Origin: a virus
DNA: 46,553 bases
Virus record (IMG/VR): IMGVR_UViG_3300044802_000020
Reading direction: 5' to 3' (one strand)
Position numbers and translations under genes: made by a program. The notes under the pieces are model-generated. The model was not told the origin of the DNA and did not search any database. It saw only the letters and a list, made by a program, of their open reading frames with translations. Positions 587 through 46,553 of the stretch are shown in pieces; the stretch's first letter is position 1; each line of letters starts with the position of its first letter.

Positions 587-2536
587 TTAGTAGGAAATGG
601 CCATCTGCCCAAATAAGTTGAGAATTGCGTTGATTTTCGAGTTGTCGCCCCCTTGAGGTACGAACACCACGCCTATGAACGTGCCGGCCGTCAATGCGAG
701 ACCGATGTTCTTAAGAGAAGTCTGCATCATGTTCCCGGATGTCGTTGTATTGTTGATGCCCGTTTGCGCAGCATTTAGGGGTATATTCAGTGTTTCAAGA
801 AGAGTCGTTGTATTCCAATTGATCTGGTAGATGTCGATTCGGATGTAGGGGTTCGACACGGGACCGCCTTGCGAAATTGCAGCACCCGCCATGCCGATAT
901 AGAAGCTGTTCAAAGTGCCATCTTTCGGCACCAAGTAGGGGCTTATTGTCTTGGCGTTCTGCAATCCGTTAGTAGCCCAGTCGGGAATGCCTGCGACGTT
1001 CGTATCATTCGGCCCGAGACAGAGGCCCACGGGATTGCCACCTGAAATTTGCTGGGGTAGGTACAGCGGTACGAAGACGTTGACGGGCTCGGCCGGCGTA
1101 GGCGTGGGAATTCCAACCACTGTTGGCGTGGCTGCGACGGACACGCACGCGGTGGTTCCTGTAGCTGTCCCGGTCGACGTTCCCGTGACGGTCCCCGTTC
1201 CAGTCACGGACCACGTATTCGTCACGGTGCCGGTAGCCGTGAGATTCGCGGTGAGCGTCTTGGTGGCGGTCATCGTCCATGTACGCGTACCCACCCCTGT
1301 AGATGTGCGCGTGTAGGTCGCCGTAACCGTCGCTGTGTAGGTCGTCGATTGTGAGGCGGTCGCCGTGCTCGACGCAGTGACGGTGCCGGTCTTCGTGAAC
1401 GTGGCCGAGCCGAACTCGCCGCCCGTCCCCGTGCCGGTCATCGTCCAGGTCTGCGTAGTCGTGAAAGACACCGTCGCGGTTTGCGTCGCGGACGTGGTCG
1501 CCGTGACCGTGGCCGAAGCACTGCCTGTGCTTGTTACTGTCGAAGTCATGGTCGCCGTACCTGTGTAGCTCGACGTGGACCCCGCGGCCGAAGCCGTGTT
1601 GGTTGCCGAGCCCGTAACGGTGCCGCTCGCCGTCGCCGTATCCGTGTAGGTGTTGGTGACGGTCGTCTTCATCGCGTTACCCTGCTCGGCGCAGATCTGC
1701 GCGGCCGTCGAGACGTATCCTGGCGCCGAGATGGTGAGCGTATTGCTGACCGTTCCACTCGTCGCTGTGGTCGTGCTGGTTCCCGACGTTACGGCAAGGC
1801 CCGGCGCTACTTGCAAAGTGTCGAGCGAGTGTCGCGCGTCCGAAAGCCTGGAATCCGTCGTGTTCACAGCCCCCGCAACGTCCGTCACCGTGTGCGTATG
1901 CGTGTACGTGTACGTCACCGTGAGCGTGGCCGTGTCCGTACTGGCGACGCTGGTGGCCGTAGCCGTGCCGGTGCTCGTTCCCGTCCCCGTGACTTTCGTC
2001 CAAACGCCGCCGATGGCCGAGAAACTGCCGACCGCCTGCGAAGTTGGGGTGTAGGTCCACGTGTCGGTTGACGCCACGGCGGTGACTGTCGCGGTCCCGG
2101 TCGCCGTCCCGGTGCCTGTGACCTTCGTCAACGTGCCTCCGGTGAGAACCATCGTCCCCGTGGCTGTGTTCGTAGAGACGCTGGTAGGCAACCATCCAAC
2201 GTCGATCTTGCCATTCGTACCAGACGCGGGGCACGAGTTCGCGGCGGGCGTCACCTGGCAAATGTCCGTGCTCGCGAGCGTGGCCGTCTGGCACGAGTTC
2301 ACATTCCAAACCGAGCCCGACGGGAGCGTGACCCGAGCCCCGCGGGCAGCCTCCGAACACACAAGCTGGTCAGTGTCCGCGTCCAGCTCGGCGGCTGTAC
2401 TTGTGCCGTGCGTCCCGTTGGTTCCTTCAACCGTCGTTAGAGCCCGTGCTTGAGGAGGAAGAAGCAGGGTCGCGAACAGCTCAAGTCCGCACAGGAAGGC
2501 GAAGAAGCGCCGTGGGATCAAGGTCTTCATGGTCAT
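587..2536 (-). CDS. Thr-rich repeat protein with a signal-peptide-like N-terminus; putative distal fibre or adhesin.
   Basis: 649-aa ORF. The N-terminus MTMKTLIPRRFFAFLCGLELFATLLLPPQARA has basic, hydrophobic and AXA segments. About 430 aa are T/G/A/S-rich T-x-T arrays, followed by a ~170-aa non-repetitive C-terminal domain. The start overlaps the upstream stop (ATGA). Confidence 0.8.
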   Translation of the reverse strand: MTMKTLIPRRFFAFLCGLELFATLLLPPQARALTTVEGTNGTHGTSTAAELDADTDQLVCSEAARGARVTLPSGSVWNVNSCQTATLASTDICQVTPAANSCPASGTNGKIDVGWLPTSVSTNTATGTMVLTGGTLTKVTGTGTATGTATVTAVASTDTWTYTPTSQAVGSFSAIGGVWTKVTGTGTSTGTATATSVASTDTATLTVTYTYTHTHTVTDVAGAVNTTDSRLSDARHSLDTLQVAPGLAVTSGTSTTTATSGTVSNTLTISAPGYVSTAAQICAEQGNAMKTTVTNTYTDTATASGTVTGSATNTASAAGSTSSYTGTATMTSTVTSTGSASATVTATTSATQTATVSFTTTQTWTMTGTGTGGEFGSATFTKTGTVTASSTATASQSTTYTATVTATYTRTSTGVGTRTWTMTATKTLTANLTATGTVTNTWSVTGTGTVTGTSTGTATGTTACVSVAATPTVVGIPTPTPAEPVNVFVPLYLPQQISGGNPVGLCLGPNDTNVAGIPDWATNGLQNAKTISPYLVPKDGTLNSFYIGMAGAAISQGGPVSNPYIRIDIYQINWNTTTLLETLNIPLNAAQTGINNTTTSGNMMQTSLKNIGLALTAGTFIGVVFVPQGGDNSKINAILNLFGQMAISY

Positions 2537-15334: not shown

Positions 15335-16507
15335 TTAGTGAGCCGAGCCGCCCGTGCCCAGCACCTTGTCCATGTAGAGCATGGACTTGGGGTAGCGCAG
15401 CTCATAGCCGCCGCAGCGCTGCTCGCCCGGCACATTCACGCGCAGGTTGACGAGCTGTGGAGCCTGGAAACGAAGGGGCATGGGTACGTGGAACACGGCC
15501 ATGTCTTCGTTGTTCACCCAGAACACCGCTCGGCTGTTGCTGCCCGAGACCGCGCCGCCCGTAGTGGCTGCGCCTGCCGTGTCGAGACCCCAGATCGGAC
15601 GAATCCGAACGTTGACCTCCATGGTCGCTTGGGAAATGTTGTTCTTCACCAAGAAGGTGAAGATCGTTGTATCGGAGTAGGTCGACCGAGCCGTCGAAAC
15701 GATCCGGTTCCACGCCTGTACCGGAACGCCGATGTCCGTCGCCACGTAGTTGAACCCCATGGCGGTGAAGACGTAGTTCAGGCCGAAGTTGAGATCGTAC
15801 AGGATCGTGTCGGCCGTGGCCGCGTCCCAGTTCCCCGTGAGGGAAGTTCCGTTGGTGCTGCCCACGGCGATCTGCGGACAGGTCGACTGATTGAGGAACC
15901 CCTTGATGTTCTTCGAGGCGATGCCGAAGAGCGCGGCCTTGTTGAGCGCGCGTTCCGCGGCCTGCGTCGCCTTGACCAGCCGGCGCTCATTGAGGGGGCG
16001 TCGGAGGTAGGCGGTCTGTCGCAGCTCTTGGAGGGTGTAGAAGTACCCGATGCGGCCGTGCGCGACCGAGTGGTTCTCGTCATCGTACTGGACATCGACG
16101 TACGGGAAATCGTCTCCCTTGTCACTGCCCCAGTCCGCTTCGCCGACACCGTCTTCCTTCTCGAAACGGATGTTGTCGGCCCACTCGCCCGCCTCGCCCG
16201 TGACCGTCATCAACTGGCGGTACTGCATGGGGAGGTACAGACGCTCACGGACCTTTGCCTCCGTGTAAGTCGTCTGCCCGATGACGAACGAAAGAGCTTC
16301 GTTCGCGTCGCGAGCGGCGCCGGGGACGCGCGCGTATTCGTGCCCGTCGCCAATGATCTTGGCCATGTCGGGCGCCCACGCGGCGTGAAGCTCGCGCAAG
16401 CGCTGCTCGCTCACGAGAACTTCCTTGAACAGGTCCATGCCATCCGCGACCGAGATCAAGCGTCGGCCCGGCTTGCCGGGGATTTCTTTTCCGATATTGA
16501 ATTCCAT
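15335..16507 (-). CDS. Major capsid protein (HK97-fold, DUF2184-like).
   Basis: 390 aa, located downstream of the protease/scaffold and decoration genes. Its size and sequence character fit the capsid family that pairs with DUF1073 portals. Confidence 0.8.
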   Translation of the reverse strand: MEFNIGKEIPGKPGRRLISVADGMDLFKEVLVSEQRLRELHAAWAPDMAKIIGDGHEYARVPGAARDANEALSFVIGQTTYTEAKVRERLYLPMQYRQLMTVTGEAGEWADNIRFEKEDGVGEADWGSDKGDDFPYVDVQYDDENHSVAHGRIGYFYTLQELRQTAYLRRPLNERRLVKATQAAERALNKAALFGIASKNIKGFLNQSTCPQIAVGSTNGTSLTGNWDAATADTILYDLNFGLNYVFTAMGFNYVATDIGVPVQAWNRIVSTARSTYSDTTIFTFLVKNNISQATMEVNVRIRPIWGLDTAGAATTGGAVSGSNSRAVFWVNNEDMAVFHVPMPLRFQAPQLVNLRVNVPGEQRCGGYELRYPKSMLYMDKVLGTGGSAH

Positions 16508-22979: not shown

Positions 22980-23198
22980 ATGGCAATCAAACGAAGGTCA
23001 GGCGGCGGTGGCGGAAATCGCGCCCCGCGAGTTGGTGGACGCGCAAGCCGCGCTGTCGCGGCAAACATGCGCACCGAAGGACGCGTTTTCAACCCGAAGA
23101 CGCGCAAGCTGGAACGTGAGAAGACCGGCATTCCCCGCGCCGCGCGGGAGTCGGCCGCCATGAGCGCGGCAGCCGGATCGAGCAACGAGGAAAAGTAG
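22980..23198 (+). CDS. Small, highly basic Gly/Arg-rich protein of unknown function.
   Basis: 72 aa (MAIKRRSGGGGGNRAPRVGGRASR...). A strong AAGGAG lies 7 nt upstream of the ATG. The TAG stop overlaps the GTG start of the next gene (TAGTG). Confidence 0.7.
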   Translation: MAIKRRSGGGGGNRAPRVGGRASRAVAANMRTEGRVFNPKTRKLEREKTGIPRAARESAAMSAAAGSSNEEK

Positions 23199-23866
23199 TG
23201 CCCTCGCTGCTTGAAGCAGCCCACGGAAGAGCCGCCGAGGTAGCGAAACTATCCGGCGGCTCTCTTCTTTTGGGGCTGTCTGGGAAAGATTCTTTCGTCA
23301 CGCTGGCCATCGCCGCCGAGCACTTCAAGCGGATCGAGTGCTTCCACCTGTACACCGTGCGCGGCCTGCGTTGTCTCGAAATTCCCCTGCAAGTCGTGTG
23401 CGCGCGCTTCGGTGCCAAGCTACACTACGTGCCGAGCCCGAACCTCGCGCGACTCATGAAGCACGGCGTTTTGCGTACGCACATCTCGAAGCTCACGCGG
23501 CGCCCCGAGATGAAGCGCGAAGACTGCGAACGGCTCATCCGTCGGCGTACGGGCATCGAATGGATCGCCTACGGTGAGCGCCTATCTGATTCGTTCGCGC
23601 GCCGTCTGTTCTGGCGGAAGATCAACGGCATTTACGAGAAGGGGAAGCGCGCGGCGCTCATCGTCGATTGGCTGGACGCTAACGTGTACGCGTACATGCG
23701 CGCGATGAAGATCCCAACCCCCTGTACCTTCGGCTCTTCGACGAAGTCGACGGGCTTCGGCCTTTCACGCGAAACGCTGCGCTGGCTTTCCGAGACGCAC
23801 CCGGACGACTACGAAAAAGTGTTGCGAGTTTTCCCCGGTGCGGGCGCGCAGCTCATCGACGTTTAG
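23198..23866 (+). CDS. PAPS-reductase-like PP-loop protein (IbrA / DndC-like superfamily).
   Basis: 222 aa with a GTG start and GAGG 9 nt upstream. The N-terminal LLLGLSGKDSFVTLAIA resembles the SGGxDS PP-loop of PAPS reductase-family enzymes but is one Gly short. Confidence 0.6.
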   Translation: MPSLLEAAHGRAAEVAKLSGGSLLLGLSGKDSFVTLAIAAEHFKRIECFHLYTVRGLRCLEIPLQVVCARFGAKLHYVPSPNLARLMKHGVLRTHISKLTRRPEMKREDCERLIRRRTGIEWIAYGERLSDSFARRLFWRKINGIYEKGKRAALIVDWLDANVYAYMRAMKIPTPCTFGSSTKSTGFGLSRETLRWLSETHPDDYEKVLRVFPGAGAQLIDV

Positions 23867-24173: not shown

Positions 24174-24842
24174 CTACGCGAACGGCCCAAACACCCGCGC
24201 GCGGTGAGGGTCCGAGCACCAAAACGAAGAGCCCCGGCGCTGAGCTGTGCTCCCTAACGCGTCCTGCACCGCTTGCAGCACTCCAGGAAACGAGGTCGTG
24301 AAGTCATGCCCGGCGATAACCCCCGTCGGCTTCAACTTGGGCAGAAACGCACGAAGAAGCTCGACGGTGTCTTGGTAGCCGTGCTGGGCGTCGATGAACA
24401 CGAAATCAAGGCTCGCGTCCGCGTACGTCGCCGCGCGCTCTTGCCCCTTCGCCGACACGAGCTGCACGTACTTTTCCAGCCCTGCATGAAAGACCAGATC
24501 CCGCACAAGGTTGTCGTGCGGCCTGCCTGCGAGAATCGACGCGCGAAGCCCCGCGGGCACGTCCACGGCACCCGGCACGGGAAGCGCCATGATTTCATCG
24601 TACGTACGCAAGAGCCCGGACGCATCCCAGCCGAACACGTCGAAAGCGTCGAAAGCGATCTTCTTCCCCGACGCCTGGATCGCTTCGGCCATGTACAGCG
24701 TCGACTTGCCGAACATCACGCCGACTTCGACGAACGCCGCACCTTCGGCCGGCGCACGCGAGACCGCCTCGGAGTAGAGATCCGCGAAGTCGAAATACCC
24801 CGGCACGTTCTCCCAAGAAATCGCCAAGCCTCGAAGGTTCAT
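24174..24842 (-). CDS. Class I SAM-dependent methyltransferase (Methyltransf_24 / CmcI-like).
   Basis: 222 aa. FVEVGVMFGKSTLYMAE is a motif I-like segment, and LDFVFIDAQHGYQDTVELLRAFLPKLKPTGVIAGHDF fits the family. Confidence 0.75.
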   Translation of the reverse strand: MNLRGLAISWENVPGYFDFADLYSEAVSRAPAEGAAFVEVGVMFGKSTLYMAEAIQASGKKIAFDAFDVFGWDASGLLRTYDEIMALPVPGAVDVPAGLRASILAGRPHDNLVRDLVFHAGLEKYVQLVSAKGQERAATYADASLDFVFIDAQHGYQDTVELLRAFLPKLKPTGVIAGHDFTTSFPGVLQAVQDALGSTAQRRGSSFWCSDPHRARVFGPFA

Positions 24843-25564
24843 GACAGCACCTTGTGATCGACGTACCGAGTCCCCGCTTCAAGCCCGAGTTTTTCGAGCC
24901 ACGCATCCTTCGCCTTGCGGGAAGGGAACACGACCATGGCAATGCGTGCGGTGTCGAGGTCTTGACGATCCGACTTCCCCTTCTCGCGCATCTTCTGACG
25001 ACGATCCTTCGCCTCGGCGGCTTCCTGCTCGCGTGCTTCGGTCATTTCGTCGAGGTCATCGACAACGGCCTTCGTCTCGGGCGTCTGCTCTTCTTCGCTG
25101 AAAAGCCCCTTGCCCTGCTCGCCTAGCAGCGCTTCCATGCCGACTTGATCGAATCCCGTAGCGTCGAGGTCGAGACCTGGCAACACATCGGCGAGCGCGA
25201 CAAGATCCCAATCCCCCCCAAGGGCGGGATTGTTGAAGGCGATGTTCTCTTCGCGTTCCTGTTGCGGCGCGAGCTTCACCACACACACGTAGAGGAGATA
25301 CGCGCTTGTCCCCATGAGCGCATCGAGAATAGCCAGGCGCTTGTGTCCACCTACGATGTTGCTCGTAACCGAGTTCACCGTCACGGCTTGCAGCAAACCC
25401 CGCTTCTTGATCTTCGCAGTGAGGCGCTTCTGCGCATCCTTCGAGATGGTGCGCGGGTTGTATGGCGCGTTCTTGATCTTGCGGCGATCCCAGCGCTCGA
25501 CCACGAACTTCTGATAGGGGCAGAGGGCGAGATCTTTCGACACGGTAGCTACTTGCTTTGACAT
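24839..25564 (-). CDS. ParB N-terminal-domain (ParB/Srx-fold) protein.
   Basis: 241 aa from the ATG at 25564, with AAAGG 8 nt upstream. It carries APYNPRTISKDAQKRL and IVGGHKRLAILDAL (GxxRxxA-type). An alternative GTG at 25666 adds 34 codons of low GC3 and was not preferred. Confidence 0.75.
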   Translation of the reverse strand: MSKQVATVSKDLALCPYQKFVVERWDRRKIKNAPYNPRTISKDAQKRLTAKIKKRGLLQAVTVNSVTSNIVGGHKRLAILDALMGTSAYLLYVCVVKLAPQQEREENIAFNNPALGGDWDLVALADVLPGLDLDATGFDQVGMEALLGEQGKGLFSEEEQTPETKAVVDDLDEMTEAREQEAAEAKDRRQKMREKGKSDRQDLDTARIAMVVFPSRKAKDAWLEKLGLEAGTRYVDHKVLS

Positions 25565-25734
25565 GTTCGCCTTTGCTGACGTTGAAGATTGCGTACGACT
25601 TTTGCGCAAAGATGCGCTGTTTCGTGCCCCCCTTCGTCGAAGCTTCTTTCTTTGAGCGCGTGCCACTGCGCGATGCTGCCCAACACAACGGCGTCGACGT
25701 TATCCATGCACCACATGACGACCATCGGAAACGC

Positions 25735-32637: not shown

Positions 32638-32868
32638 ATGGAGGATCAAATGAATAAACGCCAAGCATGGGACATCGACGCCCGCGCGCACGTTCGTAAC
32701 ATCAAGGAAAGCCTGAAAAACAACGGTCGATACGTATATGGTCGATTGGCAAACGGTCATTGGATCCGCATCGTTAATGCCAAGAGCCAGAAGGGATCGA
32801 TTCTGGGCCAGGTCGTTCGAAGCAGTGGTCTTTGCTGGGAAAAAATCAACCAGTGGGATGAACGATGA
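32638..32868 (+). CDS. Small hypothetical protein.
   Basis: 76-aa ORF. An alternative start at 32650 is preceded by GGAGG. The stop overlaps the lipoprotein start (ATGA). The antisense ORF 32632..32892 was judged spurious. Confidence 0.6.
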   Translation: MEDQMNKRQAWDIDARAHVRNIKESLKNNGRYVYGRLANGHWIRIVNAKSQKGSILGQVVRSSGLCWEKINQWDER

Positions 32869-33473
32869 AGCGTCAATTAGGCATGGTAACATCTATGGCG
32901 CTGGCCTTGCTCATGTCGTGCACGTCTGAGACCTCCCACGTCATGCACGATGCAAGGCCAGCGCTTCCTATGCGCGGACCTTCGACGTCCGGGCAAGTCG
33001 AATCGCTACCAGATAGGCCAAGTGGTGCCGAGCTACGCGCAGCCGACGCAAGCGCACCCATGCGCGCGGAAGCCTCGCCAGTCGCACCCATGGCCGAAGA
33101 TGTAAGACCTCCCAGCGGCACCGATGCCCGCGCAGCCGACGCAAGCGCACCCATGCGCGCGGAAGCCTCGCCAGTCGATGCAAGCGCGCCGATGCGTGCC
33201 GAGGTCAACCCACTGTGCGCACCCAACGAAGCCGGTTTCAGCTCGTGCGGCGCCCAAGGGGTCACGAACCAAGTCCCGTGCTGCATGTGCAGCCATCCGG
33301 GCTTTGGTGCGCCGAGTTTGCTTCTGCCACAAGCGCCCATGTGCGACTTACCGAGCACGACCATAGCGGAAGCCGCGCTGTCGCAACCGTGCACGTCTTG
33401 GGCGCAGTTCTACTTATGCCGTACGTGTCCGACCGACTCACAACCCGATGATGGAAGGTATTGCAAATCATGA
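32865..33473 (+). CDS. Lipoprotein with internal tandem repeats and a Cys-rich C-terminal domain.
   Basis: 202 aa. The signal peptide plus lipobox is MKRQLGMVTSMALALLMS-C. AADASAPMRAEASPV occurs twice with a third partial copy. There are 9 Cys in the last ~90 aa. Confidence 0.75.
   Translation: MKRQLGMVTSMALALLMSCTSETSHVMHDARPALPMRGPSTSGQVESLPDRPSGAELRAADASAPMRAEASPVAPMAEDVRPPSGTDARAADASAPMRAEASPVDASAPMRAEVNPLCAPNEAGFSSCGAQGVTNQVPCCMCSHPGFGAPSLLLPQAPMCDLPSTTIAEAALSQPCTSWAQFYLCRTCPTDSQPDDGRYCKS
33036..33177 (+). repeat. Perfect 49-bp direct repeat with a 93-bp period, inside the lipoprotein gene.
   Basis: cgcgcagccgacgcaagcgcacccatgcgcgcggaagcctcgccagtcg occurs at 33036-33084 and again at 33129-33177. 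A degenerate partial third copy follows at about 33178-33207. Confidence 0.9.
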
Positions 33474-35275: not shown

Positions 35276-36145
35276 ATGTCGAAGAAGACCACCAAAGAGA
35301 CCACCACCGCCCTGGCCCCCCGTGACCCGAACGTCGCGATGGAGCCGTGGGAAAAAGAACTCGAAGCCGAAGCGCAGAAGGCAAAGGATTCTGTCGCCGA
35401 TATTGGCGGCGGTCTGTTCGCCAGTATCAAGGGCGGCAAGCTCACGATTGGCGACAACGTGATCCCCGGCAATCAACTCGCGTGCATCGTTCTTGCCCAT
35501 TGTGCAGGAAAGACCTACTACCCTACCGGCTACAATCCCAAAGTCGCGGAGTCGCCGAAGTGCTACGCGTTCGGCCCGACACTCAAGGGCATGGTTCCGC
35601 ACAAGGAAGCGGACGCACCCCAACACCCCGCTTGCGATGACTGCAAGCACAATGTGTTTGGCACAGCCATCACCGGCAACGGCAAAGCCTGCAAGGATTC
35701 CATTCGCATGGTCTTCATCGAGGGGGGCTCGCTGGGCACGAACGGTGTCTTCATTCCGTACACTGACAAGCCGTCCGACCTGGGACGGCTCCAGAAGAAC
35801 GAAGCCGTCAAGCTGTCCATTCCCCCTACGAGCTTGGGCGCGTTCGCCAAGTACGTGCGCGCCATCGCCGAGACGAGCAAGCGGCCACTGTACGGCGTCC
35901 ACACCTTGATCAAGGTGGCGATGACCAGCAAGGGCGGCGCGGACTACCCCGAGGTGTCCTTCGAGTGCCTCGGCATGGTGTCAAAGGACCAGATCGGCGT
36001 GCTGCGCGCTCGCGCGTCGGCTGCCGAGCCCGAGCTGTCCCAGCCCTACCCCAAGATGGGCGCGAAGAAGGACGCGGATACCGACGAAGACGAGCCCACG
36101 ACCTCGAAGGCGGGCGGGAAGAAGAGCAAGGGCGGCAAGTTCTAA
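35276..36145 (+). CDS. Hypothetical protein, possibly DNA-binding or SSB-like from its position in the replication module.
   Basis: 289 aa with GAGGA upstream. It has a central Cys cluster (PACDDCKHNVFGTAITGNGKACKDS) and a charged, low-complexity C-terminal tail (KKDADTDEDEPTTSKAGGKKSKGGKF). Confidence 0.7.
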   Translation: MSKKTTKETTTALAPRDPNVAMEPWEKELEAEAQKAKDSVADIGGGLFASIKGGKLTIGDNVIPGNQLACIVLAHCAGKTYYPTGYNPKVAESPKCYAFGPTLKGMVPHKEADAPQHPACDDCKHNVFGTAITGNGKACKDSIRMVFIEGGSLGTNGVFIPYTDKPSDLGRLQKNEAVKLSIPPTSLGAFAKYVRAIAETSKRPLYGVHTLIKVAMTSKGGADYPEVSFECLGMVSKDQIGVLRARASAAEPELSQPYPKMGAKKDADTDEDEPTTSKAGGKKSKGGKF

Positions 36146-40663: not shown

Positions 40664-42135
40664 AATTCATCCCCCGAGAGTACCAAAAGGCAGGCATCCG
40701 CTTCCTTGTTTCCCGTCGCGAGGCTGCGCTACTGCTTAAGCCTGGACGTGGGAAGACGGCCGCGACGCTGGCCGCGTTCCAATTGCTCGCGCGGACCTCG
40801 AAGATGCGGGCTCTCGTGCTCGCCCCTCTGCGCGTCTGTTACGACGTCTGGAGCGCGAGCGGCGAGATCGGGCGCTGGGACCAATTCAAGGGATTGCGCG
40901 TGGCGCTACTACACGGGCCGAAGAAGGAAGAAGAGTTCCGCAAGAAAGCGGACATCTACGTCATCAACTACGAAGGTCTCGACTGGTTATGTGCGCCCCG
41001 TGATGCTCTCAAGGCGTACGGGCTGCGCAACGTCTCGCGACTAGACGAGCTTCTCGGACTGTCGTCCGGGGGGCTCGTGCTCGTGTGCGACGAGCTGTCC
41101 AAGTTCAAGCATACGAAGACGAAGCGCTTCAAGGCGCTTCGTCCGTACCTGCCACGCTTCGCGTTCCGCTGGGGGCTCACGGGCTCGCCGGCTGCGAACA
41201 GTCTAGAAAACCTGTTCGGTGAGTGCTACGTGCTCGACTTAGGCAAGCGCCTTGGGCGGTACATTACGCACTTCCGACAGAACTACTTCATCCCCTGTGG
41301 GTTCCAGGGCAAGGAATGGCGCCCGGCGCCCGGAGCGGAAGAGCGTATCTATGCGGCCATCAAGGATCTGGCGCTGGTCATCGACACGCCCGACTCGGGG
41401 GAACCGGAACTCGTCACCAACAATGTGTGGGTTGACTTGCCACCGAAAGCCCGGAAGTTTTACGACGTGCTCGAAGAGGAGATGATTGCCGAGATCGACG
41501 GCAACGTCGTTGTAGCGGGGTCCGCGGGCGTCGTCTCGGGCAAATGTCGTCAGATTGCGAGCGGTGGAATATACACCCATGGTCTGACGCAACTTCCGAA
41601 GGGGCGCGGGATTCAAGGCGTGCCCGAAGTTCAACCTGTGCACGATGCGAAGACGGAAGCCCTGGTCGACCTCGTCGACGAGCTGCAAGGACAGCCCCTT
41701 ATGGTGGGCTTTGAGTTCAAACACGACCGCGCCCGCATCCGCAAGGCGCTTGGCAACGTGCCCAGCATAGACGGAGACTGCAACCCCGCGCAAGCATCCG
41801 CCATCATCGCCGACTGGAACGCGAGCAAAACACCTGTGCTTCTCATTCACCCCCAGGCGGGGGGTCACGGGCTCAATCTGCAAGGCTGTTCGTGTGCGAA
41901 CTTCTGCTTCTACACATGTCCGTGGGACCGCGAGCTGTACGATCAAGTCATCGCGCGCGTGTGCCGGCAGGGGTCGAAGGCCGAAGTTGTCGTAGTCCAT
42001 CGCCTTCTGGCACGCGACACGGTCGACGAAGCCGTGGTGCGCGCGCTCGGAGCGAAGGGGAAGACCGAAGCGGCGCTCTTCGCAGCGCTCAAAGAGTACA
42101 GCCAGGAAAGGAAGGCCAAGAAATGCGCTCGGTAG
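40660..42135 (+). CDS. SNF2-family (SF2) helicase/translocase.
   Basis: 491 aa from the ATG at 40660, with an ATGA overlap. Motif I is LLLKPGRGKT, motif II is LVCDELSKF, and the C-terminal helicase domain contains HPQAGGHGLNLQ. Confidence 0.8.
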   Translation: MKFIPREYQKAGIRFLVSRREAALLLKPGRGKTAATLAAFQLLARTSKMRALVLAPLRVCYDVWSASGEIGRWDQFKGLRVALLHGPKKEEEFRKKADIYVINYEGLDWLCAPRDALKAYGLRNVSRLDELLGLSSGGLVLVCDELSKFKHTKTKRFKALRPYLPRFAFRWGLTGSPAANSLENLFGECYVLDLGKRLGRYITHFRQNYFIPCGFQGKEWRPAPGAEERIYAAIKDLALVIDTPDSGEPELVTNNVWVDLPPKARKFYDVLEEEMIAEIDGNVVVAGSAGVVSGKCRQIASGGIYTHGLTQLPKGRGIQGVPEVQPVHDAKTEALVDLVDELQGQPLMVGFEFKHDRARIRKALGNVPSIDGDCNPAQASAIIADWNASKTPVLLIHPQAGGHGLNLQGCSCANFCFYTCPWDRELYDQVIARVCRQGSKAEVVVVHRLLARDTVDEAVVRALGAKGKTEAALFAALKEYSQERKAKKCAR

Positions 42136-42482
42136 ATCTCCAGAAAATCACGTTGCGAATGAATGGCGAAGGTCGCACGTGCCTCTACTTCGGCGCCTCA
42201 AACGCAACCATTCGTATGCAGTCCGGACCTCTCATCGTCGAGACGTTGAGCCAGGCCGATTTGCTGCGACAATTCCCCGTCGATGTACTAGCGGACGCCG
42301 AGACACGCACGCGACGCGCGCGCCTGGACTCTGCCGGGCATCAATACGTGCTGCACGCGGCATTGGCGGGAGCTTCTGCCATGGCCGTGAATCTGCTTTA
42401 CGACATCCACACCCCCGATCTGACACTGCTTCGACAAGTTGAAGAGCGCATCGCTCCCAAGCCTGCAAAGGATCCACTATGA
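42123..42482 (+). CDS. Hypothetical protein.
   Basis: 119 aa from the ATG at 42123, which overlaps the SNF2 gene end by 13 nt. Confidence 0.6.
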   Translation: MRSVDLQKITLRMNGEGRTCLYFGASNATIRMQSGPLIVETLSQADLLRQFPVDVLADAETRTRRARLDSAGHQYVLHAALAGASAMAVNLLYDIHTPDLTLLRQVEERIAPKPAKDPL

Positions 42483-44158
42483 AACTGTACGCCTGTTACA
42501 CCGCGTCTCACCATGCAATGCTGACCTCGCACTTTCTCCCCACGGCCGAGCGTGAATTCGGCAAGGCTGTGTTCTACGACGGCCACCGTGTGCCGTGGTA
42601 CTTGTTTCCCGGCGCACGTTTGTTCGTTCGGAAGATGCTTCAATACACCCCTTCGGGTGCGTTCGACTCGGCCGGCTTTCAACGCACGTGCATCAAGAAA
42701 GTCGAGTTCATCCTTGGAGCGCTGGCGGCAGAAACGGAGCCGTTTATCTTTTCCGACGTGGACGTTCGCTTTTATGGGCCGGTGGTTGATGACCTGGCGA
42801 AGTGCCTCGGCGACTTGGACATGGTTTTTCAGTGGGACGGGCCACGCGGGATAGAGTGCAGCGGGTTCATGGTGTTGAGGCCAAGCCCAAAGTTGCTGCG
42901 ATTCTGGCAAGGCGTGCGCGACCTGATGGCCGAGCGGGGCTACATGGACCAGCCCGCCCTGCACCACAGGCTGGCGAGCGACACCGTGAAGCGGGAAAGC
43001 GACGGCGGGAACATTACGTGGAGGACGCTCCCCGTGCGGTACTGGACATTCGGCCATAGCGACAAGCACTGGACGCCCGGCACGCCGGTCAACCCCCCTA
43101 CGGGTATGCTGGTACACCATGCGAATTGGACCGTCGGCGTCGACAACAAAATGAAGCTTCTCGACGCGGTCTGTAATCACGTCGCTGGAATACGGCCGTC
43201 CGACCCCGCTATTTACCTCGGCGGGAAGCGCATCGAACCGTGTGCGGCGGATCTGTTGACTGTCGTCTCGCCGAAAGAGTCGTATTTCCCCCTAGTCGTG
43301 GAAGGCAAAGGCGTGATTCAGGACGCGAAGATCGTTTTGGACGTAGTCGTGAAGCAGCCCCCGGCGCGCCACATTCCGACGACCGAGGAGATCCAAAACT
43401 GGCGCGACGAAGAAGCCTTGCTCCGACAGACCGCCAAGCATCACGCGCTACCGCTGGCGCTCGTGTTGCAGTTCTGGGAGAAGGACAAGGACGCTGCCCT
43501 ACGGTTGGCCGAGCTGCTCGCCGACATCGAGCCCGAGCCCCGAGATGACGTGCTCTTCGTCTTCGCCGCGCAGCAAGGAACCCAGCTCGAAGCAGCCGAC
43601 GAAAAGCGCATGATCCGCGTAGGTCGGAAGTTTCGGTACACCAAGCTCGTGGCGAAGATCGACCCGCGCAAAGTGTACCCCGGCGTGTGCTTCGACCCAT
43701 GGGCTAGCGCCTTCGCTCAAATCTGTAACGCCTACTACGAAGGAAACCGCATGTGTGGTTCGGCGTTCTTCTTCGAGGCGGACGGCGCACCGATGACGAA
43801 GGACTGGATCGACCGTCTCAAGGCCGCGCACGCCGAGACCAGGCTTCACGGTAAGCGGGCCACCGGCCCACGGATGCGCGAGCACGACCATATCAACGGC
43901 ACCATGATCCTGGATGCGTCCCTGTGGCGGGACCGGCCCAGCCTTCACCAATGCCCCGCCGAAGAGCCGTGGGACATCTGGCACGGCCCGATCTTCATCG
44001 TCGAATCGCACCCCTCGAACATCATCCGCAACGAGTATGGGCTGTCCTACACGCGCGATTCCTTTGCCCAGCTCGGCCGTGAATCGGCTTGGTGCACATC
44101 CTGCAAAGACGGAACCGCCCACCATTGGGCTCGGCAACTCCTCACGCCCCGAAAGTAA
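42479..44158 (+). CDS. Two-domain glycosyltransferase-like protein: an N-terminal nucleotide-diphospho-sugar transferase fold and a second GT-like C-terminal half.
   Basis: 559 aa. The N-terminal half has IFSDVDVRFYGP (DxD), CSGFMVLRPS and DQPALHHRL, as in Nucleotid_trans-type GT-A enzymes. The C-terminal half has FFFEADGAPMTKDWIDRL. Confidence 0.65.
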   Translation: MKLYACYTASHHAMLTSHFLPTAEREFGKAVFYDGHRVPWYLFPGARLFVRKMLQYTPSGAFDSAGFQRTCIKKVEFILGALAAETEPFIFSDVDVRFYGPVVDDLAKCLGDLDMVFQWDGPRGIECSGFMVLRPSPKLLRFWQGVRDLMAERGYMDQPALHHRLASDTVKRESDGGNITWRTLPVRYWTFGHSDKHWTPGTPVNPPTGMLVHHANWTVGVDNKMKLLDAVCNHVAGIRPSDPAIYLGGKRIEPCAADLLTVVSPKESYFPLVVEGKGVIQDAKIVLDVVVKQPPARHIPTTEEIQNWRDEEALLRQTAKHHALPLALVLQFWEKDKDAALRLAELLADIEPEPRDDVLFVFAAQQGTQLEAADEKRMIRVGRKFRYTKLVAKIDPRKVYPGVCFDPWASAFAQICNAYYEGNRMCGSAFFFEADGAPMTKDWIDRLKAAHAETRLHGKRATGPRMREHDHINGTMILDASLWRDRPSLHQCPAEEPWDIWHGPIFIVESHPSNIIRNEYGLSYTRDSFAQLGRESAWCTSCKDGTAHHWARQLLTPRK

Positions 44159-44160
44159 CC

Positions 44161-44676
44161 ATGGCTCGCTGGACAAAGCTTCACGACCTCGCGAGAGCCT
44201 ACGCGCGGAGCACGTGCGACGCCAAGAAGGTGTGGAAGTTCGACCTGTCCTTCAAGCAAAGGATGCGCCAAATGTCGGTCGAATCCGCGTGCTGGGGCTC
44301 GCTTTACGACATCGGGCTACGGGAGCAAGGCGACCACATGAAAGAGCTTGTACGCTACTGCCCCGTGCGCGGCCAAGACGAGAACGCCGAAATCAACTTA
44401 GGCGAGGTGAAAGCTTCTGCGCTTCAGCCGCAACCATCGACATGTAGGCATCCCACGGCCACCGAGGGCCAGGGTCGACGTGCGAGCCCGACTGCGGGTA
44501 AGCCCGCGTCACATCCCAGTGCCCACAGATCCCCCGTCGAGCCTTCAAAAGATCCGAAGGTCCGAGCTTCTCGATTGGGATCTGCCAAGCCTGGCAAAGC
44601 TGCGCCACGAGCCGCGACGAAAGCCGCAGCACCGCCTGCCCGGCCGAAGTCGCCCACTCGGTCGCCTCGGCGATGA
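44161..44676 (+). CDS. Hypothetical protein whose C-terminal 94 codons run antisense through the amidase gene.
   Basis: 171 aa from the ATG at 44161. The first ~80 codons have high GC3 and ordinary composition. No in-frame stop occurs before 44674-44676. The tail is P/A/S/K/R-rich. Confidence 0.5.
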   Translation: MARWTKLHDLARAYARSTCDAKKVWKFDLSFKQRMRQMSVESACWGSLYDIGLREQGDHMKELVRYCPVRGQDENAEINLGEVKASALQPQPSTCRHPTATEGQGRRASPTAGKPASHPSAHRSPVEPSKDPKVRASRLGSAKPGKAAPRAATKAAAPPARPKSPTRSPRR

Positions 44677-46092: not shown

Positions 46093-46553
46093 TCAAACCG
46101 GAGGCTCGAAGACAGGAGGTGACGTTCCTTCGATACGTTGAAGCAAGCAAGTTCCATTGACCGTCGGAGTCTCCCCGGAAATCTGTACCGCCACGCTTCG
46201 ATCTGGCGTGACGGTCACACTTCCCGAGACAAGAAGCTGCGAATTGTGGTGCGCTTCGACCGCGAACGGTACGCTGGCGCTCCCCGTGATGGACAAATTC
46301 GATTGGTTGTAGGTGGAGAGCGTAGAAGCGGCATCGTCGGCCGCTGTGATGCTGGACGCGGTGTCGTCCCACGCGTAGCACATAGCCGTCGCGCTCCCCG
46401 CGAAGTCCACCGTCGCGCGCGAAGAACGGCGAAGATGGATCTCTGGGTGCGCCGAGCCCTGCACCGTCAAGGCCGCAACGTCGCCGGCAGCGTTGATTTC
46501 CACGCGCCCCGAGCTGGTCTCGTCGAAGGTTACCGCCCAAGCCACATCCGCCG
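46093..46553 (-). CDS. Beta-solenoid-like repeat protein, C-terminal part of the junction-spanning 302-aa ORF (see 1..575).
   Basis: The tracked ORF 46093..46545 begins at an internal GTG. The frame stays open to the window edge and continues, through the 127-bp repeat, to the ATG at 575. Confidence 0.8.
   Translation of the reverse strand, partial: ADVAWAVTFDETSSGRVEINAAGDVAALTVQGSAHPEIHLRRSSRATVDFAGSATAMCYAWDDTASSITAADDAASTLSTYNQSNLSITGSASVPFAVEAHHNSQLLVSGSVTVTPDRSVAVQISGETPTVNGTCLLQRIEGTSPPVFEPPV
46427..46553. repeat. Terminal direct repeat, right copy, identical to 1..127.
   Basis: Exact 127-nt identity read off both ends. Confidence 0.97.

Follow-up and report, generated by a model that had tools for sequence, protein, structure and literature searches.

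Phage particles have long been held to be unglycosylated, and to our knowledge the mycobacteriophages are the only documented case of phage virion glycosylation. Among the viruses of eukaryotes, protein A064R of chlorovirus PBCV-1 combines two rhamnosyltransferase domains with a methyltransferase and builds part of the capsid N-glycan. O-glycosylation of mycobacteriophage virions was reportedly described by Freeman and colleagues in 2023 (Cell Host Microbe 31:1216; cited in PMC12619734 and PMC13313380), with soluble phage-encoded transferases proposed to act on capsid and tail proteins; the glycans are said to shield virions from antibodies, and that study is said to have found little evidence of glycosylation in other phages. 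The pairing of a transferase with a methyltransferase is read in actinobacteriophages as a sign of glycosylated virions (PMC13313380). Here we analysed a tandem glycosyltransferase (GT) gene of the GT-A type at 42479..44158 (+ strand, ATG start, 559 aa) on a 46,553-nt stretch of viral DNA (IMG/VR record IMGVR_UViG_3300044802_000020), the whole of which is called the window below. Sequence analysis and structure modelling predict that this transferase is a soluble two-domain GT-A enzyme, the second domain founding an undescribed sequence family. What is new is a phage tandem GT-A enzyme at the centre of a set of glycan-building genes, an island to which sulfotransferase-like genes also belong in relatives.

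Mycobacteriophage virion glycosylation was taken as the functional model for the window transferase, both being phage-encoded and cytoplasmic, with methyltransferases often alongside. An earlier note on this DNA had cited the mycobacteriophage transferases as a precedent, and no sequence relation to them was detectable: tblastn against 50,697 phage records, actinobacteriophages included, returned two matches only, both near-identical records of an uncultured 735-kb phage. The hosts also differ, those of the present family probably not being actinobacteria, and the sulfotransferase-like partners are new here. Whereas the mycobacteriophage acceptor sites are C-terminal extensions of capsid and tail-tube proteins, the candidate site in the window is an internal loop of the major capsid protein, which ends in ...DKVLGTGGSAH and has no Ser/Thr-rich C-terminal extension. 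A064R is like the window transferase in being encoded by a virus, working in the cytoplasm and having a capsid protein as its proposed target, and its GT-GT-methyltransferase order resembles that of two fused relatives of the window protein (P0031, P0178); giant-virus multi-GT proteins were also among the viral fold matches. A064R differs in belonging to a eukaryotic virus, the comparison is one of domain order, and the window protein has no methyltransferase domain.

The open reading frame (ORF) described in the earlier note, 559 aa on the + strand, was present with its ATG start, and the five motifs it had quoted (FSDVDVRF, GFMVLRPS, DQPALHHRL, FFFEADGAP, HINGTMILD) were all found in the translation. 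GC content at codon positions 1/2/3 was 0.62/0.44/0.78, matching other window genes. A search of 5.8 billion proteins yielded 58 homologs (best E = 8e-245), about 50 of them full length with 36-65% identity; the homologs were metagenomic throughout and none had a meaningful name, the ~50 full-length ones belonging to uncultivated phages. Alignment of 44 full-length transferases revealed 39 invariant residues spread across both halves. This is a genuine gene, maintained by purifying selection from end to end. The protein lacks a signal peptide and membrane segments, its longest hydrophobic run being 8 residues.

A full-length AlphaFold2 model built from the family alignment had a mean predicted local distance difference test score (pLDDT) of 85 and resolved two confident domains, in agreement with the two-domain architecture that had been proposed. 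The domains are parted by a linker (43199..43369, + strand; residues ~241-297) that is disordered at residues 245-297 (pLDDT <50), is gapped in the alignment and differs between homologs in both length and sequence. In the PDB, the full-length model was best matched by enzymes that are themselves tandem GT-A, namely LH3, CHSY3/CHPF, LARGE1, PmHS2 (heparosan synthase 2), COLGALT1, WbbM and K4CP (E 7e-10 to 2e-5). These enzymes share with the window protein two GT-A domains per chain, but identity is 8-14% and the domain orientation is not comparable, with a root-mean-square deviation of 15-26 Å. Several of them are polymerases that alternate two sugars, whereas nothing in the window protein indicates polymerisation, and the gene islands of its relatives (described below) suggest a short capped oligosaccharide. 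A fold check of both halves had been named beforehand as the test of the proposal, and the N-terminal half was GT-A by profile and structure search, the C-terminal half by structure search. The product of 42479..44158 is almost certainly a glycosyltransferase.

The N-terminal domain (42479..43198, + strand; residues 1-240) is of the PF03407 / GT77-GT8-like type. PF03407 corresponds to the CAZy GT77 type, which includes plant RGXT, the extensin arabinosyltransferases and Dictyostelium AgtA. The Pfam family PF03407 (Nucleotide-diphospho-sugar transferase) matched residues 61-228 against profile positions 42-208 of 208, with E = 2.4e-11 and 44.5 bits against a gathering cutoff of 22, so that the assignment of this half to the GT-A nucleotide-sugar transferases held; the same domain was precomputed in 48 of the 58 homologs. 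The modelled pLDDT was >90 across most of residues 1-240, and the Foldseek matches included glycogenin (TM-score, the template-modelling score, ~0.5), with a phage 'nucleotide-diphospho-sugar transferase' of the PF03407 type as the best viral match (TM 0.91). The DxD motif D93-V-D95 (42755..42763, + strand), invariant in 44 sequences, is predicted to bind metal and nucleotide-sugar. Also invariant are D157-Q158 (42947..42952, + strand), within DQPALHHRL, and Q118 and D120, as well as H213, N216 and W217 of the motif H213-H214-A-N216-W217 (43115..43129, + strand), in which H214 and A215 are at least 90% conserved. By analogy with GT8 enzymes, H213-H214-A-N216-W217 is a candidate second metal ligand, and the GT8/GT77-type motif set (D157-Q158, H213) suggests that the domain is probably retaining. 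The domain resembles PF03407 members in its family-profile match above cutoff, DxD motif and GT-A fold, and is unlike them in being fused to a second, unrelated GT-A domain. It has only 26-34% identity to members found outside the orthologous phage group, and the complete two-domain protein occurred in one cellular-genome record only, a 3.8-kb contig binned to a Myxococcales metagenome-assembled genome (MAG). A literature search found no paper that ties PF03407 or GT77 to a phage function.

The C-terminal domain (43370..44155, + strand; residues 298-559) had no match among Pfam, PHROG and PDB sequences, whether searched alone or with 14 sequences combined in a profile, and none of 120 listed C-terminal-domain homologs carried a Pfam domain. 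Modelled alone, it reached a pLDDT of 94.5 and a predicted TM-score (pTM) of 0.89. The model had 161 PDB fold matches at E ≤1e-3, and the best 50 were all glycosyltransferases or GT-A-fold domains. They included GnT-I (E = 3.8e-7, TM 0.49) and CHSY3 (TM 0.53-0.56) together with COLGALT1, B3GalT5, GfsA, glycogenin, POMGnT1, XylT1 and UGGT, with modest TM-scores of 0.4-0.56 overall; the Foldseek probability was 1.0 for GnT-I, COLGALT1, CHSY3 and glycogenin. The earlier note's suggestion that this half is a second, divergent GT-A domain was thus upheld by fold alone, to which a conserved ExD and His can be added. The ExD, E433-A-D435 (43775..43783, + strand), is the DxD equivalent and is invariant, stand-alone paralogs included; in H471-I-N473 (43889..43897, + strand), a candidate metal ligand of this domain, the His and Asn are invariant. 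Further invariant residues are H451, D336, D349, E351, D499 and K543-D544. When 1.84 billion cluster representatives were searched exhaustively with phmmer, the family numbered 319 clusters at E ≤1e-3, of which 151 remained at E ≤1e-10. This makes the C-terminal domain a small GT-A sequence family, so far undescribed and absent from Pfam, and, whatever its acceptor, a candidate new CAZy family once activity is shown.

Whether one or both domains transfer sugar was weighed on the same evidence. In LH3 and COLGALT1, which were among the best full-length fold matches, one GT-A-like domain each is regarded as non-catalytic, and this, together with the modest TM-scores of the C-terminal domain to active enzymes, would fit a protein with a single catalytic domain in which the C-terminal half is a GT-A-like accessory for acceptor binding or oligomerisation. 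We consider this quite unlikely. The C-terminal half keeps 17-21 invariant residues (the ExD, two His and several Asp, Glu and Lys) at 35-50% identity, and proteins of ~250 aa consisting of this domain alone were found in >100 clusters, which would not be expected of a mere accessory module. The invariant residues are also kept in the stand-alone paralogs and in a triplicated C-N-C architecture, which argues that the domain is catalytic rather than accessory. Since each half has invariant acidic and His motifs across ~50 orthologs and the stand-alone paralogs, both halves are probably catalytic, and we hold with reasonable confidence that both GT-A domains are active.

We collected 17 distinct loci with the two-domain gene, including the window, and mapped a panel of proteins onto them; loci of relatives are labelled L001, L002 and so on, and a phage with the transferase gene is called a carrier. 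The transferase lay directly after the portal gene in 10 of the 17 loci (L003, L004, L046, L047, L048, L049, L051, L053, L055, L056), where the order was portal, transferase, then the MuF, scaffold, cement and capsid genes. It ended the same replication module in six others (the window, L001, L040, L041, L042, L043), among which tails were contractile in some and non-contractile in others, and in the remaining locus (L002) it lay upstream of the terminase genes. All carriers with visible head genes had the portal, scaffold and capsid families of the window (28-42% identity), with replication and tail modules that varied between carriers. Stand-alone C-domain genes sat within or beside the same head-module type.

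Tailoring or extra glycosyltransferase-type genes were found immediately downstream of the transferase, or fused to it, in 13 of the 17 loci. The methyltransferases of these islands were O-methyltransferases of the TylF type (PF05711) and the FkbM type (PF05050). The sulfotransferase-like genes (L003 12774-13397, L004 14247-15029, L040 11656-12315, L048 10568-12081, L053 12931-14498) belonged to two families with weak Pfam matches and motifs of the type that binds 3'-phosphoadenosine 5'-phosphosulfate (PAPS), HIPKTAG.T ... MLRDP and LARSGG.. ... RDP..W.S; a literature search found no report of phage-encoded sulfotransferases tied to phage capsids or capsid genes. The islands also held stand-alone copies of N-like or C-like domains and a further family of ~250 aa, x249/x250 (L003 11275-12767, duplicated; L051 4207-4971; L056 11494-12288; L005 3346-3786), with an invariant S-D-x-V motif of the 'DSDCVF' type. 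This family may be another glycosyltransferase; a PDB profile search and a profile-profile comparison with the C-terminal domain detected no relation to any known family or to that domain. Fused relatives had the orders N-C-TylF methyltransferase and C-N-C, and distant members of the C-terminal family were fused solely to GT2, GT9, PF03407, DUF6492 or TylF domains. The downstream tailoring and glycosyltransferase genes and the fusions indicate that the transferase family builds a short, tailored oligosaccharide, and gene content of this kind suggests a role in glycan building rather than in single-sugar transfer.

The window is a minimal version of the island, with the core transferase and an unlinked Methyltransf_24 gene (24174..24842, - strand; Pfam E = 2.5e-17). 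The product of the latter had 41% identity (tblastn) to a methyltransferase encoded two genes downstream of the transferase in L041, and it also matched phrog_2675 'DNA methyltransferase'; it is possibly an unlinked sugar-tailoring partner and equally possibly a DNA methyltransferase. A 119-aa ORF directly upstream of the transferase (42123..42482, + strand), whose stop overlaps the transferase start (ATGA), was considered as a family-wide partner and rejected, being conserved in the close relative L001 only. Before the terminase genes of the window, the Methyltransf_24 gene forms a trio with a ParB-like gene (24839-25666, -) and a PAPS-reductase-like gene (23198-23866, +), an arrangement reminiscent of IbrA/IbrB-type predicted DNA-modification modules.

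The earlier note had offered two phage-specific targets, virion protein and genomic DNA. Glycosylation of the virion was the best reading, although not by way of the Thr-rich fibre protein that had been put forward as its acceptor: the conserved correlate of the transferase was instead the head module together with a loop in the capsid protein. That the acceptor is a virion protein is our tentative preference, a little short of an even chance. The position of the transferase inside the head operon in 10 of the 17 loci and the same head-module association of the stand-alone C-domain genes both speak for it. The candidate acceptor is the major capsid protein of the DUF2184 / PF09950 type (15335..16507, - strand), which is 31% identical to its PF09950 counterparts in L003 and L004 and is homologous to Pam3 gp7 (PDB 8hdt). 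In this protein the loop WGLDTAGAATTGGAVSGSNS (15533..15592, - strand; residues 306-325) contains 6 Ser/Thr and is 8 residues longer than a 12-residue form, and it is a candidate O-glycosylation site. We compared the capsid proteins of 9 carriers with those of 12 phages that lack the transferase (GT-less phages) and then those of 80 further IMG/VR loci. The loop had 12 residues in non-carriers (consensus RGLNTAGAGGTR) and 17-35 residues in carriers, with 1-10 Ser/Thr, mostly 5-6. Among 80 non-redundant capsid proteins, 61 had a short loop and no transferase, 2 a short loop with a transferase, 4 a long loop without a transferase and 13 a long loop with a transferase. A loop of at least 17 residues was thus present in 13 of 15 carriers against 4 of 65 others (Fisher p = 7e-10, uncorrected for phylogeny). 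The closest GT-less relatives of the window capsid protein (40-43% identity) had the short 12-residue loop and no transferase in view. The capsid ORF of the window is ~60 residues longer at its N-terminus than most homologs, with alignments starting at residues 62-66; the extra N-terminus is either an extension or delta-like domain, or the start codon was called too early.

In the mechanism that we propose, each domain would bind a host nucleotide-sugar through a divalent cation and transfer one sugar, so that two residues of a short glycan would be added in succession. Scans with Pfam and PHROG, which covered nearly all window ORFs of at least 150 aa, showed no gene for sugar activation. In most relatives the adjacent TylF/FkbM O-methyltransferases, sulfotransferase-like proteins and extra GT domains would then extend and cap the glycan. 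The acceptor would be a virion head protein, most plausibly the extended Ser/Thr-containing capsid loop (15533-15592), and its modification would take place in the cytoplasm, either ahead of head assembly or in the course of it. In full, this would be a capsid-glycosylation system outside the actinobacteriophages, with the transferase as its core and the family confined to one head type, placing a methylated and sulfated oligosaccharide (by O-methyltransferases and PAPS-dependent sulfotransferases) on an extended surface loop of an HK97-fold capsid. We regard this complete picture as possible but on balance unlikely.

Several observations weigh against a capsid acceptor. The association with the capsid loop is largely phylogenetic: in a neighbour-joining capsid tree the carriers formed one large clade plus the window, so that only ~2-3 independent events lie behind it. 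L116 and L118 have a C-domain-type gene yet a short loop, and KpV79, CASP1 and L099 have a long loop with no transferase in view. A homolog of the capsid protein without the transferase was present in 571 phage records; with a capsid type this common, the shared head type may reflect only the common ancestry of the carriers. The window loop aligns to residues 242-254 of Pam3 gp7, close to an insertion (residues 214-224) that the Pam3 capsid carries on its inner face (PMC9942802). Finally, the link between enzyme and acceptor is indirect, the acceptor being one that we infer.

Three other acceptors were weighed against the virion head. Glycosylation of a phage DNA base, an anti-restriction hypermodification on the T4 precedent, would fit the position of the transferase as the last gene of the replication operon in the window and five other loci, a position that also counts against a head-protein acceptor. 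This operon includes a thymidylate-kinase-like nucleotide kinase, and kinases like this one typify the pre-replicative clusters for pyrimidine hypermodification (PMC13326640); L002 moreover carries a Mom gene 3 kb from the transferase, and oligosaccharide modifications of DNA are on record (PMC13326640; bioRxiv 10.1101/2023.12.21.572611). The phage DNA glycosyltransferases (T4 alpha-/beta-GT, the arabinosyltransferases and the JGT-like enzymes acting on 5-hydroxymethylcytosine) are likewise phage-encoded and soluble, use nucleotide-sugars, and in some cases lie near replication genes as the window transferase does. They always accompany an enzyme that supplies a hydroxylated base, however, and none was detected in the window genome. 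The earlier note had itself remarked on the missing hydroxymethylase, and this was borne out: no thymidylate-synthase-type hydroxymethylase or hydroxylase, TET/JBP dioxygenase or C5-methyltransferase was detectable in the scanned ORFs of what is a complete genome, so that no known enzyme would supply a hydroxyl-bearing base. The 289-aa Cys4 protein encoded beside the kinase also occurs upstream of PolA in the GT-less Stenotrophomonas phage AXL3. Known phage DNA glycosyltransferases are GT-B enzymes or JGT-like GT-A enzymes with the motifs R...DDD...EDY/F (bioRxiv 10.1101/2023.12.21.572611; PMC13326640), and none belongs to PF03407; both window domains are GT-A and, compared with JGT-like enzymes by motif description, lack DDD or EDY/F at conserved positions. 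Neither T4 alpha-GT nor beta-GT was among the best 50 fold matches. Both domains are fused or linked to glycan enzymes only, the O-methyltransferase and sulfotransferase partners and the GT2/GT9 fusions have no precedent for DNA glycans, and the transferase is not basic, with an isoelectric point (pI) of 7.6 (6.6 for the C-terminal domain). DNA thus seems an unlikely acceptor.

A glycoconjugate of the host envelope, such as an undecaprenyl-linked O-antigen or exopolysaccharide precursor, the lipopolysaccharide (LPS) core or an S-layer glycan, is unlikely too, though less so. It is common for soluble GT-A enzymes to use lipid-linked acceptors at the inner membrane. Stand-alone homologs of the N-terminal domain occur on many MAG chromosomes, bacterial as well as archaeal, some of them beside the same methyltransferase and sulfotransferase families as the phage islands, and the C-terminal family is fused to GT2 and to GT9 heptosyltransferase-like domains typical of LPS and polysaccharide pathways. 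The purpose of such a modification would be an altered cell surface, for example one that blocks adsorption of progeny or competitors to infected cells or debris. Against this, the phage looks virulent from its gene content, which includes PolA, a primase-helicase and an SNF2 helicase of its own; the scanned ORFs revealed no integrase, and no Pfam-recognisable flippase, polymerase or ABC exporter was present among the called island genes. Envelope modification would also leave unexplained the single head-module type, the head-operon position and the correlation with the capsid loop. The Thr-rich fibre-cluster protein (587..2536, - strand), which exists as the earlier note had described it (649 aa, 23% Thr), has long TxT-type repeats. 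Both it and the transferase are conserved (76-81% identity) in L001, the closest relative, and L041 has it weakly, as a moderately Thr-rich fibre. Yet it is not a conserved partner: the covered fibre regions of L040, L042 and L043 contained no protein of at least 200 aa with >15% Thr, and none was found in the head-island carriers either. Its N-terminus moreover resembles a secretion signal (MTMKTLIPRRFFAFLCGLELFATLLLPPQARA); if the signal is cleaved and the protein exported, the fibre leaves the cytoplasm, where a soluble transferase acts. Virion glycosylation with this fibre as acceptor, alone or beside the capsid, is therefore an improbable variant. The fibre-like protein of L041 (6432-8663) also begins with a signal-like sequence, which would not be expected of a tail component, since these assemble in the cytoplasm.

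If capsid glycosylation is correct, virion glycosylation would have arisen independently, with unrelated enzymes and in other hosts, possibly Gram-negative ones, and sulfated and methylated sugars would join the chemistry of phage particles. The C-terminal family (319 clusters) would then serve as a sequence marker for such phages in metagenomes.

Positions 1-127 of the window recur exactly, in direct orientation, at 46427-46553. This 127-bp terminal overlap marks the assembly as circularly closed and the window as a complete phage genome, 46,426 bp long. Across the junction of the ends, on the - strand, runs a beta-helix-like ORF of ~310 aa with a homolog in L001 (13560-14492). The - strand carries a myovirus structural module with a portal (PF06381), a MuF-like protein, a cement-like protein and the DUF2184-type capsid, together with a DUF3383 sheath, baseplate J and a hub; its scaffold-type head protein belongs to PF09979 and has 'head maturation protease' as its best PHROG match. 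A lysis cassette on the same strand encodes an amidase-type endolysin, the L001 homolog of which carries Pfam Amidase_2. On the + strand, the early operon has, in this order, a DUF3854/DUF5906 primase-helicase, a sigma-70 region 4 protein and the thymidylate-kinase-like kinase, continues with a 155-aa and a 289-aa protein without assigned function, PolA, a PD-(D/E)XK nuclease and a VRR-NUC-like protein, and ends with the SNF2 helicase, the 119-aa ORF and the transferase. The transferase had been described as closing this operon. That is nearly right: no other large + strand gene separates it from the lysis and tail genes, which converge on it from the - strand, but a small ORF (44161-44676, + strand) begins 3 nt past its stop. 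The first ~85 residues of this ORF are visibly similar in L001 (11634..) when the translations are read side by side, and it continues antisense across the 3' end of the amidase gene, where its sequence is of low complexity. No intrinsic terminator was found between the transferase and the convergent genes. Weak hints as to the hosts, possibly Gram-negative and in the Myxococcota, come from three MAG contigs, all short, that bear Myxococcales or Polyangia labels, and from the large terminase of the window, which is nearest to that of Bdellovibrio phage phi1422.

The 289-aa protein of the early operon (35276..36145, + strand; L044 10751-11653), a Cys4 protein in which the four Cys are invariant and which has a GKAC motif, was considered as a divergent thymidylate-synthase homolog and rejected, having no Pfam or PDB match and being present in GT-less phages as well. 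Its gene always lay just 5' of PolA, in this phage group as in AXL3 (gp43), Pseudoxanthomonas phage PW916 and others. A role as a DNA-binding protein or an accessory of the replisome is possible. AXL3 (L044, NC_071036 25000-40000) is a GT-less relative of the replication module and has, downstream of its helicase, two annotated thymidylate synthases, a thymidylate kinase, a hydrolase and a methyltransferase, a gene set that suggests a modified pyrimidine in that phage. A further early gene of the window (32865-33473, +) encodes a 202-aa protein whose N-terminus looks like that of a lipoprotein, with the lipobox LLMSC, and whose C-terminus is rich in Cys. It contains DASAPMRAEASPV as a tandem repeat, had no family match and may be a surface protein of the superinfection-exclusion type.

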